A stretch of 32,000 nt of DNA from Bacillus subtilis subsp. subtilis str. 168 (GCF_000009045.1 NC_000964.3:450001-482000); one strand, 5' to 3'; shown: positions 21,645-32,000, counted from the first letter of the stretch. Numbers and translations are program-made. The notes: a model not told the origin generated them from the letters alone.

Positions 21645-21670
21645 GTTTATCCAAAGAGTGTGTGAGGTAC
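21645..21670 (+). promoter_or_regulatory. candidate SigB-type promoter of ydaD-ydaE
   Basis: GTTTAT (21645-21650), a 14-nt spacer, then AGGTAC (21665-21670). This compares with the SigB consensus GTTTAA-N12-15-GGGTAT. Confidence 0.5.
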
Positions 21671-21708
21671 ACAACAAATAGACATGAAAACAAAGGAGGA
21701 GAATCATC

Positions 21709-23740: not shown

Positions 23741-23767
23741 GTTTAAATCTTCCCCGGATGTGGAAAA
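23741..23767 (+). promoter_or_regulatory. candidate SigB-type promoter of ydaG
   Basis: GTTTAA (23741-23746), a 14-nt spacer, then TGGAAA (23761-23766), about 35 nt upstream of the ydaG start. Confidence 0.55.
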
Positions 23768-24225: not shown

Positions 24226-24618
24226 AAAATTTGTGTTTTCAGGGGCGATATGTTATTATGAATAGCTAGTAAGAAAAATAAGCAAATAAAAAAGAAAGTA
24301 AACTTCTTTTTTCTGTTTTGAGAGAGAAGCTTACCGCTTCCCAAGCAGCATAACCAGCTGCCCTTATTCTTTTCCTTCATAACAAATCGCCCCTAACGAT
24401 GAGATGGAAAAAAGACTTTTTTGTTTTACAATTCACACCGGCGCGGCTTCGGAGCCGCAGTGACGATTGAGAGGTAGGGCTTTCGTTGTCTTGTGTTCAA
24501 GAAATTTCCATGGTGTTTACTTTCCAGAATGATTCTTCGGAACAATGCTTTATGAATCTAACCCGCCTGACTTGGCGGATGATATAATCTTTATTTGCGT
24601 ATAGAAAAGAATAAGACA

Positions 24619-26557: not shown

Positions 26558-28741
26558 ATGTCAAAAACAGTTGTATTAGCTGAAAAACCTTCAGTCGGCC
26601 GGGATTTAGCCCGGGTACTGAAGTGCCATAAAAAAGGAAACGGTTATCTCGAAGGCGATCAATATATTGTGACTTGGGCTTTAGGCCATTTGGTGACGCT
26701 TGCTGATCCGGAAGGCTACGGAAAAGAATTTCAATCATGGCGCCTAGAGGATCTGCCGATTATCCCAGAACCCTTGAAGCTTGTGGTGATAAAAAAAACC
26801 GGAAAGCAGTTCAATGCAGTCAAATCCCAGCTTACCCGTAAAGACGTCAATCAGATTGTCATCGCGACTGACGCAGGCCGGGAAGGTGAGCTTGTTGCGC
26901 GCTGGATCATTGAGAAAGCGAATGTCCGAAAACCAATCAAGCGGCTGTGGATTTCATCTGTGACGGATAAAGCGATCAAGGAAGGTTTTCAAAAGCTGCG
27001 CAGCGGCAAAGAATATGAAAACCTGTACCATTCTGCCGTCGCCAGAGCGGAAGCGGATTGGATTGTGGGGATCAACGCCACCCGTGCACTTACCACAAAA
27101 TTCAATGCCCAGCTCTCATGCGGGCGTGTGCAGACTCCGACGCTTGCCATGATTGCAAAGCGCGAGGCAGACATTCAGGCGTTTACGCCCGTTCCGTATT
27201 ACGGCATACGTGCTGCAGTCGACGGCATGACGCTGACGTGGCAGGATAAGAAATCAAAGCAGACGAGAACGTTCAATCAAGATGTAACAAGCCGTTTGCT
27301 AAAAAATCTCCAAGGAAAGCAAGCGGTCGTAGCTGAGCTGAAAAAAACAGCGAAAAAAAGCTTTGCGCCTGCGCTTTATGATTTAACGGAGCTCCAGCGT
27401 GACGCCCACAAGCGCTTCGGTTTTTCTGCCAAAGAAACGCTTTCTGTCCTGCAGAAGCTATATGAGCAGCATAAGCTCGTCACATATCCGCGGACGGACT
27501 CTAGATTTTTATCCAGTGACATCGTCCCGACGTTAAAAGACCGTCTGGAAGGCATGGAAGTAAAACCGTATGCCCAATATGTCAGCCAAATTAAAAAACG
27601 CGGCATTAAATCTCATAAAGGATATGTCAATGACGCGAAGGTGTCAGACCACCACGCGATTATCCCGACCGAAGAGCCGCTCGTTCTCAGCAGTCTGAGT
27701 GATAAAGAACGAAAGCTGTATGACCTGATTGCGAAACGTTTCCTGGCTGTATTAATGCCTGCATTCGAATATGAGGAAACAAAGGTCATCGCAGAAATCG
27801 GCGGAGAAACCTTTACGGCGAAAGGCAAAACCGTGCAGTCGCAAGGGTGGAAAGCCGTTTATGATATGGCGGAAGAGGATGATGAGCAGGAGGATGACAG
27901 AGATCAGACACTTCCTGCGCTTCAAAAAGGCGACACACTTGCCGTCCGCACGTTAACGGAAACAAGCGGCCAAACGAAGCCGCCTGCCCGCTTTAATGAA
28001 GGGACCTTGCTGTCAGCGATGGAAAACCCAAGCGCGTTTATGCAGGGAGAAGAAAAAGGCCTCGTCAAAACGCTTGGAGAAACAGGCGGCCTCGGCACGG
28101 TGGCAACGCGTGCCGACATTATTGAAAAACTGTTCAACAGCTTTTTAATCGAGAAAAAAGGCCAAGATATTTTTATCACATCTAAAGGAAAACAGCTCCT
28201 GCAGCTTGTTCCGGAGGATCTGAAATCACCGGCCTTAACAGCAGAATGGGAGCAAAAGCTGTCTGCGATCGCGGCCGGCAAATTGAAATCGGCTGTTTTT
28301 ATTAAAGATATGAAGGCTTACGCTCACCAAACGGTAAAAGAAATCAAAAACAGCAGCCAAACCTTCCGACATGACAACATTACGGGAACGGCATGTCCGG
28401 AATGCGGCAAAATGATGCTGAAAGTAAACGGCAAACGCGGGACGATGCTCGTGTGCCAAGATCGTGAATGCGGAAGCAGAAAAACGATTGCCCGAAAAAC
28501 AAACGCACGCTGCCCAAATTGCCATAAAAGAATGGAGCTTCGCGGCCAAGGCGAGGGCCAAACCTTTGCGTGTGTGTGCGGTCACCGTGAAAAGCTCTCT
28601 GTATTTGAAAAACGAAAAAACAAAGACAAAGCGCGTGCTACCAAACGGGACGTATCCTCTTATATGAAAAAACAAAATAAAGATGAGCCGATTAACAACG
28701 CGCTGGCAGAACAGCTGAAAAAACTCGGTTTGGATAAATAA
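26558..28741 (+). CDS. topB: DNA topoisomerase III (type IA) with C-terminal Cys4 zinc ribbons
   Basis: Toprim region (VVLAEKPS, IATDAGREGE) and the active-site Tyr motif LVTYPRTDS. The C-terminus carries CPECG...CQDREC and CPNC...CVC. 727 aa. Confidence 0.95.
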   Translation: MSKTVVLAEKPSVGRDLARVLKCHKKGNGYLEGDQYIVTWALGHLVTLADPEGYGKEFQSWRLEDLPIIPEPLKLVVIKKTGKQFNAVKSQLTRKDVNQIVIATDAGREGELVARWIIEKANVRKPIKRLWISSVTDKAIKEGFQKLRSGKEYENLYHSAVARAEADWIVGINATRALTTKFNAQLSCGRVQTPTLAMIAKREADIQAFTPVPYYGIRAAVDGMTLTWQDKKSKQTRTFNQDVTSRLLKNLQGKQAVVAELKKTAKKSFAPALYDLTELQRDAHKRFGFSAKETLSVLQKLYEQHKLVTYPRTDSRFLSSDIVPTLKDRLEGMEVKPYAQYVSQIKKRGIKSHKGYVNDAKVSDHHAIIPTEEPLVLSSLSDKERKLYDLIAKRFLAVLMPAFEYEETKVIAEIGGETFTAKGKTVQSQGWKAVYDMAEEDDEQEDDRDQTLPALQKGDTLAVRTLTETSGQTKPPARFNEGTLLSAMENPSAFMQGEEKGLVKTLGETGGLGTVATRADIIEKLFNSFLIEKKGQDIFITSKGKQLLQLVPEDLKSPALTAEWEQKLSAIAAGKLKSAVFIKDMKAYAHQTVKEIKNSSQTFRHDNITGTACPECGKMMLKVNGKRGTMLVCQDRECGSRKTIARKTNARCPNCHKRMELRGQGEGQTFACVCGHREKLSVFEKRKNKDKARATKRDVSSYMKKQNKDEPINNALAEQLKKLGLDK

Positions 28742-28744
28742 TAA

Positions 28745-28775
28745 AAAAACCTGTGCCTATCGCACAGGTTTTTTA
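28745..28775 (+). terminator. Rho-independent terminator of lrpC-topB
   Basis: aaaaacctgtgc (28745-28756) pairs with gcacaggttttt (28762-28773), T-run to 28774. Confidence 0.88.
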
Positions 28776-28943
28776 TTGGACTTAGGTCCTGTTTTCTTAA
28801 TGTTCAAAAAGGGAAAAAAAAGCTAGCAATCTGCATTTTTTTTCTTTTATAGTAAATGTACTTTGTAACATGGCAGTCATATTTTCGTCTATAACTATTT
28901 GTGAGCGTCTGATTTGCTTCAGGCGACAAAGGGGGATTTGCCT

Positions 28944-30032
28944 GTGAGGCATGTACTAATTGCTGTCATCTTATTCTTCTTATCTATCGGACTTTCCGCA
29001 GGGTGTGCTGAAGCTGGAAACAAGACCCAAAATCAGTCGGCGACAGAAGTGAATGCCAGCCCGCTCCAGCCGGCGGAATATTTCATCTATCACAATTTAA
29101 TGAATGACAAAGGGCTGATCAAAACCGATTTTTCAGACCAGCCTTCTTACTTGTCGGAATCTCTCGGACTGTGGATGGAGTTTCTGCTCAGCAAAAATGA
29201 CGCACCACATTTCCAGGATCAATATCAGCATCTGACTGATTCATTTCTGATGAGCAATCACTTGGTGACGTGGAAGATTCAAAATGGCCAAGCGAGCGGG
29301 ACGAATGCGCTGATAGATGATATGAGAATTATGCTGTCTCTTGACCAAGCCGCCGCAAAATGGGGCCGCAGCGACTACGCGCAAACGGCTAGGGATATCG
29401 GCACGTCTTTGAAGACATACAATATGAACAACGGGTTTTTTACAGACTTTTACGACTCACAGGCCGCTTCAAAGGATGTGACGCTTTCATACGTCATGCC
29501 TGATGCCTTAGCTGTCTTAAAGAAGAATGGAATCATAGACGAAGAAACAGAACAGCGGAATGCCAATGTTCTCTATTCAGCTCCTTTAAAAAATGGCTTT
29601 CTGCCGAAGACATACAGCTCGGAGACGAAGGAATACACATATGATAGTGAAATCAACCTGATTGATCAGCTTTACGCTGCTTGGCATTTGCCGGAAGGGG
29701 ATGAAAAAGCATCTGTTTTAGCGGACTGGATCAAGCAGGAATTTCAGAAAAACGGAAAGCTGTACGGGCGGTATTCGGCATATACGAAGGAGCCTGCCGT
29801 CCAATATGAGTCTCCATCCGTATATGCCTTAGCCGTATTGTTTTTGACAAAACAGCATGAAAACAGTTCTGTCATCAAAGCCATATATGATAGAATGAAT
29901 GACTTTGAAATTCATGATCCGGTGAAATCGTATTATGGAGGCTATATGAGCGGCACTCAGACGCATTCATTTGACAATCTGCTGCCGCTGTTAGCCGAAA
30001 GGAAGCTTTTTAATGAAAATATCATTCAGTGA
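28944..30032 (+). CDS. ydaJ: lipoprotein, glycoside hydrolase family 8-like (BcsZ-like) component of the yda EPS operon
   Basis: Start placed at GTG 28944, with AAAGGGGGA 8 nt upstream, giving 362 aa; the ORF-track TTG 28914 is rejected. Signal peptide with lipobox LSAGC. Confidence 0.88.
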   Translation: MRHVLIAVILFFLSIGLSAGCAEAGNKTQNQSATEVNASPLQPAEYFIYHNLMNDKGLIKTDFSDQPSYLSESLGLWMEFLLSKNDAPHFQDQYQHLTDSFLMSNHLVTWKIQNGQASGTNALIDDMRIMLSLDQAAAKWGRSDYAQTARDIGTSLKTYNMNNGFFTDFYDSQAASKDVTLSYVMPDALAVLKKNGIIDEETEQRNANVLYSAPLKNGFLPKTYSSETKEYTYDSEINLIDQLYAAWHLPEGDEKASVLADWIKQEFQKNGKLYGRYSAYTKEPAVQYESPSVYALAVLFLTKQHENSSVIKAIYDRMNDFEIHDPVKSYYGGYMSGTQTHSFDNLLPLLAERKLFNENIIQ

Positions 30033-30864
30033 ATCACAAAAATTATTTGCTTATTTTTCAGGGCTCATCGCGGCCCTGTCTTTGTTTATTTATTATGTGT
30101 CAGCCCAGCAATCAGAAGGTGCTCTGATCCTTTGCATCACATTTGGCGTCATCGCCGCAGGCATCTGGTTCGGCCCGATTTACGCGCTGGCAGTGACCTT
30201 AATCGTACTCTTTGTTCTCGGCACCTTAATGATGTTTTTCCAGACTGGACAGACATCGCTCTTTCCGGCTGAGGAAGGGCTGCGAATGCTTGTCGTGTGG
30301 GGAATCGCGCTTTTGCTGTTTTCTTTTATTTCTGGAAGAATCCACGATATTACAGCAGAGCTTCGGCGCTCAATGACACGGCTTCAATCCGAAATTAAAA
30401 GCTATGTTGCTGTTGACAGAGTGACTGGTTTTGATAACAAGCAAAGGATGAAGCTGGAACTTTCAGAAGAAATCAAGCGGGCGGAGCGCTACGGCAATTC
30501 TTTTGTGTTTTTGCTGCTCCATATGCATTATTTCAAAGAGTTTAAGTCTTTGTACGGTGAAAAAGAAACGGACCGCCTCTTCCAATATGTCGGTCAGCAA
30601 ATCAGGACAAGCGTTCGGGAAACGGATAAGAAATTCCGTCCCTCTGACGAGCGTATCGGGATCGTGCTGACGCACACGCCTGCTGAACATATGCCGGCCG
30701 TTCTGACTAAGCTGAAGAAACAATTGGATACATATCAGCTGGAAAATGGAAAGTATGTGTCGCTTACGTTCCACGTTTGCTATTTGCCCTACCGCAACGA
30801 TATCCAAACAGCTGATCAATTTTTAGAAGAACTGGAAAACGAGATGATGATGAATGAACTATAA
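30013..30864 (+). CDS. ydaK: membrane protein with degenerate GGDEF domain (c-di-GMP receptor)
   Basis: The ATG overlaps the ydaJ 3' end by 20 nt, with GAAAGGAAG 7 nt upstream. Four N-terminal TM helices. In the GGDEF fold the signature is replaced by SDERI and the RETD I-site is retained 5 residues upstream. 283 aa. Confidence 0.92.
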   Translation: MKISFSESQKLFAYFSGLIAALSLFIYYVSAQQSEGALILCITFGVIAAGIWFGPIYALAVTLIVLFVLGTLMMFFQTGQTSLFPAEEGLRMLVVWGIALLLFSFISGRIHDITAELRRSMTRLQSEIKSYVAVDRVTGFDNKQRMKLELSEEIKRAERYGNSFVFLLLHMHYFKEFKSLYGEKETDRLFQYVGQQIRTSVRETDKKFRPSDERIGIVLTHTPAEHMPAVLTKLKKQLDTYQLENGKYVSLTFHVCYLPYRNDIQTADQFLEELENEMMMNEL

Positions 30865-32000
30865 AGGAATCACATTGCTATGCGTCATGATGCTTCTATT
30901 TTCAGCTATTGCGTCTTTTCCCGTTTCTGCGCAAGCGAAAGATCAGGATGCCGGCATTCTCATCATCTACTCAACCTTGGACGGCAAAGAGTCGTCACAA
31001 GTCAAAATGCTCGATTTGCTTGCGGGCCACTTTACATCCCATGTGACAGTCAAAAAAGATTCAGACGTTGAAGCGTCGGATTTCAAAGGGAAAGACCATG
31101 TGATTTATTACGGCCAAACGAAAAGAAAGCTCAGCCAAAAATTGCTGTCTCTTATCAGCGGCGTGAAAAAACCGGTTGTCGCCATTGGCTATAACGCAGG
31201 CCAAATCAGCCAATTTTCTGGGCTTTCATTAGCCCGCAAAGAAAATGTGTTTCAGGTTCACAGCAGGTCAGAAAAGGCCGATGTGTCTCTGGAAAGCGGG
31301 CTTAACGTGCTGAGTGTATCAGGCCTGAAAGGAACGGCGCTTTACACCTTCAAAGCGGATGAAGGCACAACGCATTCTTTTATATGGAAAACAAAAAAAG
31401 GGAATGTGTACATTGGATTAACAAATTTGTTAAATGACAATTTGATCGTGGCGAAACAGCTCAGAGAAGCTTTCGGAGAGAAGGCGGGGACGACGTTATT
31501 GTATTTGCGTCTCGAGGATATCAGCCCGATGTCTGATGAAAAACTGCTGCTTCAAGCCGGTACATACCTGCATAAGCGGCATATTCCTTTTATCCTGGCG
31601 GTCATTCCGGTTTACTTGAATCCGGAAACAGGCGACAAAGTGTATTTGTCTAATCAACCGAAGATGGTCAAGGTGCTGAAGAAGCTGCAAAGCATGGGCG
31701 GCAGTATCATAGTTCACGGCTATACTCACGCTTATCGCTACAGTGAAACAGGAGAGGGATTTGAATTTTGGGATGCAAAGGCGGATCAGCCGATTACATC
31801 CGGAAATGCCGAAGACCCCCCGTCCATTTTGGAGAAAGAACAGGACTTCCCGAACGAACAAGCCTATCACAGCTATCTTGAACCATTTCGGGAAAAGGAA
31901 GAAACGTATACAAAACAAAAACTGACGCGTGCCATTGAGGATTTGACATCATCGGGTCTTTACCCGCTGGCGTTTGAAGCGCCGCATTACACGATGTCCG
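30854..32000 (+). CDS. ydaL: secreted DUF2334 / polysaccharide-deacetylase-like protein, N-terminal 382 codons (3'-truncated by window edge)
   Basis: Not in the ORF track because no stop falls inside the window. I translated it by hand from ATG 30854, which overlaps ydaK by 11 nt, and the frame stays open to position 32000. Signal peptide MNYKGITLLCVMMLLFSAIASFPVSAQA. DUF2334-like LRLEDISP...IVHGYTH. Confidence 0.85.
   Translation, partial: MNYKGITLLCVMMLLFSAIASFPVSAQAKDQDAGILIIYSTLDGKESSQVKMLDLLAGHFTSHVTVKKDSDVEASDFKGKDHVIYYGQTKRKLSQKLLSLISGVKKPVVAIGYNAGQISQFSGLSLARKENVFQVHSRSEKADVSLESGLNVLSVSGLKGTALYTFKADEGTTHSFIWKTKKGNVYIGLTNLLNDNLIVAKQLREAFGEKAGTTLLYLRLEDISPMSDEKLLLQAGTYLHKRHIPFILAVIPVYLNPETGDKVYLSNQPKMVKVLKKLQSMGGSIIVHGYTHAYRYSETGEGFEFWDAKADQPITSGNAEDPPSILEKEQDFPNEQAYHSYLEPFREKEETYTKQKLTRAIEDLTSSGLYPLAFEAPHYTMS

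Follow-up and report, generated by a model that had tools for sequence, protein, structure and literature searches.

Promoter, leader and first genes of the ydaJKLMN exopolysaccharide operon of Bacillus subtilis 168

We analyzed a 32,000-nt stretch of the Bacillus subtilis subsp. subtilis str. 168 chromosome (GCF_000009045.1, NC_000964.3:450001-482000; hereafter the window, with positions counted from its first nucleotide), focusing on positions 28776-32000. With a probability of about 0.93, this region is the 5' part of ydaJKLMN, with the promoter, the leader and two and a half genes; the operon encodes a synthase-dependent exopolysaccharide (EPS) system of the cellulose-synthase type that is controlled at two levels. 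The operon is already known: it corresponds to BSU04270-04310 and has been published by Gao et al. 2013, Bedrunka & Graumann 2017, Kunz et al. 2020 and De Stefano et al. 2026. Locus, genes, YdaK motifs (R202-D205, SDERI) and SigB dependence are the same as those described, with no biological difference, and no evidence contradicting the identification was found. The system is the only cyclic di-GMP (c-di-GMP)-controlled EPS machine of the Gram-positive model organism and serves as a model of local c-di-GMP signaling through DgcK and YdaK; because this significance has been published, finding the operon again is no discovery. The present analysis adds an assignment of YdaJ to GH126, a fold-level CE4 assignment for YdaL, comparative support for an ATG start yielding a 576-aa YdaL, and an extra conserved block in the leader. 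Its annotation value lies in four corrections: a SigB promoter, GH126 in place of GH8, an anchored CE4-like YdaL, and the ATG start of ydaL.

Results

Locus Identity and Overlapping Gene Layout

The window was identical to the B. subtilis chromosome CP045672.1 (L001), with 0 mismatches across 11,988 shared nt (100% identity), and on this basis L001 was used as its downstream continuation. The exact YdaK protein is present on B. subtilis chromosomes. Gene order in L001 is topB-ydaJ-ydaK-ydaL-ydaM-ydaN-kimA, followed by mutT and ydaP. Beyond the window it encodes a 420-aa GT2 synthase, YdaM, and then a 706-aa BcsB-like protein, YdaN, so that the downstream glycosyltransferase anticipated by the first-pass annotation, with ydaN behind it, is indeed present. 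Together with the DNA identity and the published EPS production that depends on c-di-GMP, DgcK and YdaK, this bears out the central proposal of that annotation, namely that the region is the 5' half of a Bcs-like, c-di-GMP-gated EPS operon.

All three genes of the region lie on the + strand. ydaJ (28944-30032) starts with GTG and encodes a predicted lipoprotein of 362 aa; its ribosome-binding site (RBS), AAAGGGGGA, was read from the sequence at 28929-28936 (+ strand), 7 nt 5' of the GTG, and is conserved. ydaK (30013-30864) encodes a 283-aa four-transmembrane (TM) protein with a degenerate GGDEF domain, and ydaL (30854-32000) starts with ATG and contributes the first 382 of its 576 codons before continuing past the window end. 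The open reading frame (ORF) table and the raw sequence place the overlaps exactly where they had first been noted, with 20 nt shared by ydaJ and ydaK (30013-30032) and 11 nt by ydaK and ydaL (30854-30864). The 20-nt overlap recurs in the subtilis, amyloliquefaciens, licheniformis and pumilus groups, and the ydaK/ydaL junction, ATGATGATGAATGAACTnTAA, is kept in all 14 species compared. Given the longer ydaL and ydaN starts, the four junctions J-K, K-L, L-M and M-N overlap by 20, 11, 8 and 4 nt, respectively. The earlier idea that such overlaps imply co-translation as one machine holds as far as co-transcription and translational coupling are concerned; assembly of the machine is known from published co-localization.

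The 11-nt overlap depends on the ydaL start, which varies between assemblies: ATG 30854 yields 576 aa, and TTG 30875 yields 569 aa. The reference annotation, as judged from published distances, uses TTG 30875, which leaves a 10-nt gap to ydaK and no overlap. Across the 14 species, ATG 30854 is conserved in every one and the following Lys/Arg in most, while the TTG codon is unconserved and is replaced by CTG, CTA or CTC in other species. Since both the ATG and the junction are conserved and the TTG is not, the comparison suggests that ATG 30854, and hence the overlap, is the better-supported start. A similar discrepancy affects ydaN (706 versus 703 aa; L001 positions 13824 versus 13833). In addition, one B. 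paralicheniformis protein (P0021, 565 aa) carries both DUF2334 and GGDEF Pfam matches and resembles a YdaK-YdaL fusion; this probably reflects a frameshift or faulty annotation where the two genes overlap.

A SigB-Type Promoter Upstream of ydaJ

Pattern matching identified a SigB-type promoter at 28791-28816 (+ strand), composed of a -35 element GTTTTC (28791-28796), a 14-nt spacer and a -10 element GGGAAA (28811-28816). The consensus used, GTTTaa and GGG(A/T)A(A/T) separated by 13-15 nt, was taken from the literature. The expected transcription start site (TSS) at ~28823-28825 gives a 5' untranslated region (UTR) of ~120 nt. A strict match is expected 1.16 times per 64,000 positions, which by our own calculation corresponds to a chance of ~0.003 for one strand of the 168-nt leader.

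Published data converge on the same site. A SigB-regulon meta-analysis maps a tiling-array upshift, U335, to a point 133 nt upstream of ydaJ (window position ~28811) and lists both SigB motifs at that site; by its convention the spacer is 15 (TGTTTT-N15-GGG). In a 2026 paper, lacZ fusions to ydaJ and to ydaN showed equal, weak activity that was higher in biofilm medium and was abolished in a sigB mutant (sigB::neo) in two media; the equality of the two fusions argues that the operon has no internal promoter. The first-pass annotation had seen no convincing SigA or SigB promoter in the leader. That statement was wrong, because the motif coincides with the published upshift and the fusions require SigB. 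The natural inducing condition, likewise described as unresolved, is partly known and includes SigB, stationary phase, biofilm medium and DgcK.

Two known SigB promoters in the same window, those of ydaD (GTTTAT-N13-GAGGTA, 21645-21671) and ydaG (GTTTAA-N14-TGGAAA, 23741-23766), are no closer to the consensus than the ydaJ promoter, and the upshifts of ydaG and ydaD lie 0-16 nt from the TSSs predicted from their promoters. Of the B. subtilis-clade species compared, most keep the ydaJ SigB motif.

The B. pumilus group (L022-L028) presents a different arrangement ~130-150 nt 5' of ydaJ, where GTTTTTCTGAAAATGGGAAT replaces the canonical SigB spacing and GTTTTT and GGGAAT stand 8 nt apart. Judged by eye, the same segment overlaps a 12/15 match to the CodY box AATTTTCWGAAAATT. 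A perfect TATAAT occurs further downstream in these leaders, and ydaJ regulation may be different in this group.

A Conserved Leader Block and Possible Additional Control

The 168-nt leader proposed at 28776-28943 proved real. It follows the intrinsic terminator hairpin of topB (28744-28774, + strand), a 13-pair stem between A and T runs that is kept in the subtilis clade and isolates the operon from upstream transcription. A conserved block, GCTAGCAATCT...TATAGT, spans 28822-28853 (+ strand), is near-invariant in 10 subtilis-clade leaders and is more widely conserved than the SigB motif: its form is TAGCAA-N16-TATAAT in the licheniformis group, the amyloliquefaciens group has TAGTAT-N17-TATAGT, and both groups have lost the SigB motif. 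Judged from its sequence, the block may be a weak SigA-like promoter, an operator or a 5'-UTR element. In B. subtilis, a SigA-like pair can be read in it as TAGCAA (28824-28829), an 18-nt spacer and TATAGT (28848-28853). A sigma-70 scan called neither this block nor any other site in the leader; its one match lay inside the end of topB. Just 5' of the ydaJ RBS, single-sequence and alignment folds both predicted a small 7-bp hairpin, CGTCTGA/TCAGGCG (28906-28925, + strand). The subtilis clade keeps this hairpin by one-sided G-U/A-U changes only, with no compensatory pairs and thus no covariation support, and its significance is uncertain.

These features raise the question of whether SigB is the whole story. 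A second SigA-type promoter or an operator in 28822-28853 could drive or co-drive the operon, with the SigB site being a recent feature specific to the B. subtilis clade. The wider conservation of the block and its promoter-like form in the licheniformis group agree with this idea, as does kinetic modeling in which ydaJKL were best fitted by SigB plus SigA. We nevertheless regard it as unlikely: the B. subtilis pair matches the -35 consensus in 3 of 6 positions, has a spacer of 18 nt and TATAGT as its -10 and escaped the sigma-70 scan; lacZ activity was totally abolished without SigB in both media; and the published upshift at ~28811 lies ~50 nt upstream of the TSS that the SigA-like pair would give. 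A riboswitch or attenuator in the long AT-rich leader, for instance one sensing c-di-GMP and adding control at the RNA level, is far more improbable, even though the ~120-nt 5' UTR is partly conserved and carries a small hairpin ahead of the RBS. An Rfam scan of the whole window at gathering thresholds returned BsrC only, and a permissive scan of 28740-28990 produced only sub-threshold matches driven by the topB terminator, with no family near its gathering score. The whole-leader fold was no better than that of shuffled sequence (minimum free energy z = -0.38), and no terminator-like T-run follows the hairpin. On these results and the missing compensatory pairs, a structured leader or riboswitch was rejected, and transcription from the SigB promoter is the reading retained.

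YdaK as the c-di-GMP Receptor

The earlier description of YdaK, four TM helices plus a degenerate GGDEF domain, was confirmed. Hydropathy analysis showed four hydrophobic spans within residues 11-111, and Pfam recognized the GGDEF domain with an E-value of 9e-30. SDERI (211-215) replaces the GGDEF motif, and RETD (202-205) forms an RxxD I-site separated from it by the five residues KKFRP. In the literature, YdaK binds c-di-GMP with a dissociation constant (Kd) of ~1 uM and has no cyclase activity, the I-site variants R202A and D205A have been made, disruption of RxxD is reported to inhibit EPS production, and DgcK is the specific c-di-GMP source and physically interacts with YdaK. With this published evidence, YdaK qualifies as a degenerate-GGDEF I-site c-di-GMP receptor of the PssE/PelD type that licenses synthesis. 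By our own count, a putative secondary I-site of the RxxR type is RAER at 156-159, given as R157-R160 in the 2017 paper; the primary site at 202-205 agrees.

The Synthase Pair YdaM-YdaN and Its Conservation in Bacillales

YdaM, which lies outside the window and was analyzed at full length from L001, matched Pfam GT2 at 1.8e-31 and BcsA structures at ~1e-13. It carries the motifs DAD142 (DxD), ED235 and QRTRW272 (QxxRW), together with N- and C-terminal hydrophobic spans. No PilZ match was found in it by Pfam, which indicates that c-di-GMP is sensed in trans by YdaK. YdaN matched Pfam BcsB at 2.1e-35 and has a C-terminal TM helix at 672-699.

Conservation was assessed in the best 80 YdaM relatives found by a genome scan with YdaM (L005-L084), drawn from Bacillus, Lysinibacillus, Paenibacillus, Brevibacillus, Sporosarcina, Kurthia, Exiguobacterium and other genera. 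The order J-K-L-M-N is kept in nearly all of these ~80 Bacillales loci; Listeria is absent from the best 80. Conservation is strikingly uneven, with YdaM retaining 70-99% identity across genera and YdaJ, YdaK, YdaL and YdaN dropping to 25-45%. Within the subtilis clade, YdaM stays at 96-99% identity (98-99% excluding B. atrophaeus) and its neighbors at 68-96%.

Two side observations concern the distribution of the operon. Table 1 of the 2026 Applied and Environmental Microbiology (AEM) paper lists no YdaM homologue for B. halotolerans, B. atrophaeus or B. pumilus. By tblastn, the representative genomes of these species (L009, L012 and L028) contain the five genes in the usual order, YdaM being 79-99% identical, and the absences in that table seem to be artefacts of its search. 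A metagenome-assembled genome (MAG) contig labeled 'Candidatus Bathyarchaeia archaeon' (L063, DASQNU010000285.1) carries a complete J-K-L-M-N set whose YdaM is 70% identical; this is probably Bacillota sequence binned wrongly and not an archaeal operon.

YdaJ Belongs to GH126

YdaJ had been described as a GH8-like lipoprotein. The lipoprotein part stands as a prediction: the protein has an N-terminus beginning M-R-H and a lipobox, LSAGC with Cys21, that fit the pattern [LVI][ASTVI][GAS]C preceded by a positive N-terminus, and the lipobox Cys is conserved in 13 of 14 species. The family part does not. No Pfam or NCBIfam family matched YdaJ at E <= 0.1, the GH8 profile PF01270 included, and its carbohydrate-active character was visible only against solved structures. 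A phmmer search of the PDB aligned residues 20-354 with Listeria PssZ (6r2m, 7.5e-32) and Clostridium perfringens CPF_2247 (3ren, 6.6e-24). Both are solved (alpha/alpha)6 enzymes that CAZy places in GH126 and not in GH8 (PMC7479077).

In CPF_2247 numbering, the GH126 invariants are Glu84, Asp136 and Tyr194, and Arg139 and Tyr307 are unique to the family (PMC7479077). YdaJ residues E72, D125, Y183, R128 and Y294 align with all five, the two family-unique ones included; this correspondence comes from motifs in the HMMER alignment to 3ren, not from matching the CPF_2247 numbers to the chain. Marginal PDB matches at E ~0.05 were also obtained to 6vc5 and 1wzz, labeled as (probable) endoglucanases. 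We take these two to be GH8 enzymes. On sequence grounds, then, we assign YdaJ to GH126, the family of Listeria PssZ, with a GH8-like fold, and GH8 membership was rejected. From this assignment, YdaJ would trim, release or otherwise modify the polymer outside the membrane. A profile hidden Markov model check had been proposed in which both YdaJ and YdaL were to match carbohydrate-active families; it returned DUF2334 for YdaL and no family for YdaJ, so that taken literally half of it went against the proposal.

YdaL Is an Anchored Protein with a CE4-Like Predicted Fold

YdaL matched Pfam DUF2334 at 4.4e-36 for the window fragment and at 3.2e-50 at full length. The window includes the N-terminal signal peptide and alpha/beta domain as well as the first two thirds of DUF2334. 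A C-terminal TM helix (533-564) is present in the full-length protein and indicates that YdaL is anchored rather than released. The earlier description of a secreted, DUF2334/deacetylase-like protein running off the window was thus correct on the domain, the signal peptide and the truncation; the protein is membrane-anchored and not freely secreted.

The structure of YdaL was predicted, because neither sequence nor profile searches found a solved relative; weak Cas6 matches in these searches (E = 0.013) were discarded as noise. One distant homologue, P0094, bears a precomputed match to the CE4 family PF01522. The AlphaFold2 (AF2) model, computed from a 26-sequence alignment built from the homologue search, reached pLDDT 88.5 and pTM 0.83. 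Its top ten Foldseek matches in the PDB were all CE4 esterases or deacetylases, with E-values of 5e-5 to 7e-4 and ~10% identity; the target TM-score ranged from 0.36 to 0.68 and was at least 0.5 in 8 of the 10. The modeled structure has a CE4 deacetylase-like (beta/alpha)-barrel fold. Candidates for the CE4 Asp-His-His metal triad and the catalytic Asp and His, given as alignment positions only, are E221/D222 (23 of 26 sequences), H288 (26 of 26), H292 (24 of 26) and H466 (23 of 26), the first two histidines showing H-x3-H spacing. From the predicted fold and these conserved residues, YdaL is likely to de-N-acetylate the nascent polymer or to modify it in some other way.

Residues ~34-210 of YdaL (window 30953-31483) have no Pfam match and form the alpha/beta domain in the model. 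The fold of this domain matches glutamine amidotransferase (GATase)-like proteins, namely the GATase subunit of GMP synthetase and the N-terminal domain of IFT52; beta-galactosidase matches probably belong here as well.

Discussion

The findings fit a machine in which control acts on both transcription and enzyme activity. RNA polymerase carrying SigB, the general-stress sigma factor, initiates from the promoter at 28791-28816, just past the topB terminator, and makes one mRNA covering five genes, on which the overlapping junctions would favor translational coupling and fixed subunit ratios. In the membrane, the GT2 protein YdaM polymerizes the chain and translocates it together with the BcsB-like YdaN, and published work shows that it is active only when the I-site (RxxD) of YdaK has bound c-di-GMP supplied locally by DgcK. 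Outside the membrane, the anchored, CE4-like YdaL would modify the nascent polymer and the lipoprotein YdaJ would trim or release it. Published work agrees with this scheme in that the polymer is made only when YdaK, YdaL, YdaM and YdaN are all present, and YdaK, YdaM and YdaN gather in polar clusters that are static. The product leads to clumping and to stronger adhesion of spores, and it binds Congo red. In lectin staining, GSL-1 (specific for alpha-galactose (Gal)/N-acetylgalactosamine (GalNAc)) depends on the operon, and WGA (specific for N-acetylglucosamine (GlcNAc)) is operon-independent.

Several points weigh against this interpretation. The strict SigB pattern is not enriched over the whole window (2 matches versus 1.16 expected), and for this reason the argument for SigB rests on position and on the published upshift, not on match count. 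The motif is not conserved outside the B. subtilis clade, and the kinetic-modeling paper described above invoked SigA jointly with SigB. The enzymatic roles given to YdaJ and YdaL are predictions from fold and conserved residues, and YdaL, searched both as a single sequence and as a 14-orthologue profile, has no sequence match to the CE4 family PF01522 or to a solved structure. Finally, no determined structure of the polymer was found in the searchable literature, and on this the first-pass annotation remains up to date.

Among characterized systems, Listeria Pss is the closest homologous one. Like Yda, it combines a GT2 synthase, a BcsB-like protein and a degenerate-GGDEF I-site receptor in place of PilZ, as well as a putative deacetylase (PssB, compared with YdaL) and a GH126 hydrolase (PssZ, compared with YdaJ at E = 7.5e-32). 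The YdaJ-PssZ comparison was made by sequence; YdaK, YdaL, YdaM and YdaN were compared with PssE, PssB, PssC and PssD by description only. The cognate cyclases, DgcA/B in Listeria and DgcK, are described as orthologues. Explicit YdaM/PssC orthology was not found in the literature, which offers only a comment that the DgcK-YdaK and DgcA/B-PssE cascades seem to be conserved. The Listeria system differs in having an extra gene, pssA, and in its layout: the receptor gene comes last and pssZ sits in a separate c-di-GMP enzyme operon, whereas hydrolase and receptor come first in Yda. Transcriptional control as described also differs, with SigB acting on yda and pssZ lying within the c-di-GMP enzyme operon. 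The Pss product is a defined polymer of N-acetylmannosamine (ManNAc) and Gal; alpha-Gal lectin staining of the Yda product fits a polymer decorated with Gal but does not prove one.

More distant systems share parts of the design. BcsA-BcsB(-BcsZ) is likewise activated by c-di-GMP and comprises a processive membrane GT2 enzyme with QxxRW, an accessory (alpha/alpha)6 hydrolase and a BcsB-like extracytoplasmic or periplasmic partner that is anchored by a C-terminal TM segment. In cellulose synthase, however, PilZ is fused to the synthase and the hydrolase is GH8, whereas Yda uses the separate receptor YdaK and a GH126 hydrolase and adds a CE4-like modifying enzyme. The poly-N-acetylglucosamine (PNAG) systems PgaABCD and IcaADBC resemble Yda in pairing a GT2 synthase with an extracytoplasmic CE4-type deacetylase, and in PgaCD c-di-GMP acts without a PilZ domain. 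They differ in that Pga and Ica have no BcsB-like subunit; moreover, YdaL has no Pfam CE4 (PF01522) match, and WGA staining does not depend on the operon.

These likenesses could be taken to mean that ydaJKLMN is a true cellulose or PNAG synthase system whose product is beta-1,4-glucan or poly-beta-1,6-GlcNAc. YdaM does match BcsA structures and YdaN the Pfam BcsB family (2e-35), the deacetylase-like partner is reminiscent of PgaB and IcaB, and the overexpression strain binds Congo red. We consider such a product very unlikely all the same. The YdaM-BcsA match at ~1e-13 is no better than those to other GT2 enzymes, and the operon proteins include neither a PilZ domain nor any further subunit of the Bcs, Pga or Ica systems. 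The hydrolase belongs to GH126, and PssZ, the enzyme it most resembles, cleaves a polymer of ManNAc and Gal; the operon-dependent lectin is GSL-1 and not WGA; and the homologous Listeria system, built on the same logic of GT2, BcsB and GGDEF receptor, makes neither cellulose nor PNAG. The Yda product is probably not cellulose, and the preferred reading remains a synthase-dependent EPS system of the cellulose-synthase type.

The structure of the polymer calls for chemistry and not sequence analysis. The kinship of YdaJ with GH126/PssZ, taken with the alpha-Gal lectin result, makes a Pss-like ManNAc-Gal structure a concrete and cheaply testable hypothesis. We put forward tentatively, and with the odds somewhat against it, a broader proposal: that the Yda polymer is a Pss-type heteropolymer whose beta-1,4-ManNAc backbone carries alpha-linked Gal, perhaps partly de-N-acetylated by YdaL; that the cassette is a Bacillales-wide Pss machine, with YdaM at >=70% identity versus 25-40% for its partners; and that the leader element at 28822-28853 is the wider feature underlying a SigB promoter found in the clade only.

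The surroundings of the operon add further detail. The upstream gene topB occupies 26558-28741 in the ORF table. The neighborhood is unusually dense in SigB-regulon genes, which comprise ydaC-G, ydaJ-N, ydaP, ydaS and ydaT. Between ydaG and amj/ydaH, a full-length BsrC small RNA (Rfam RF01410) lies at window positions 24413-24499 on the - strand, scoring 79.3 bits against a gathering threshold of 38.

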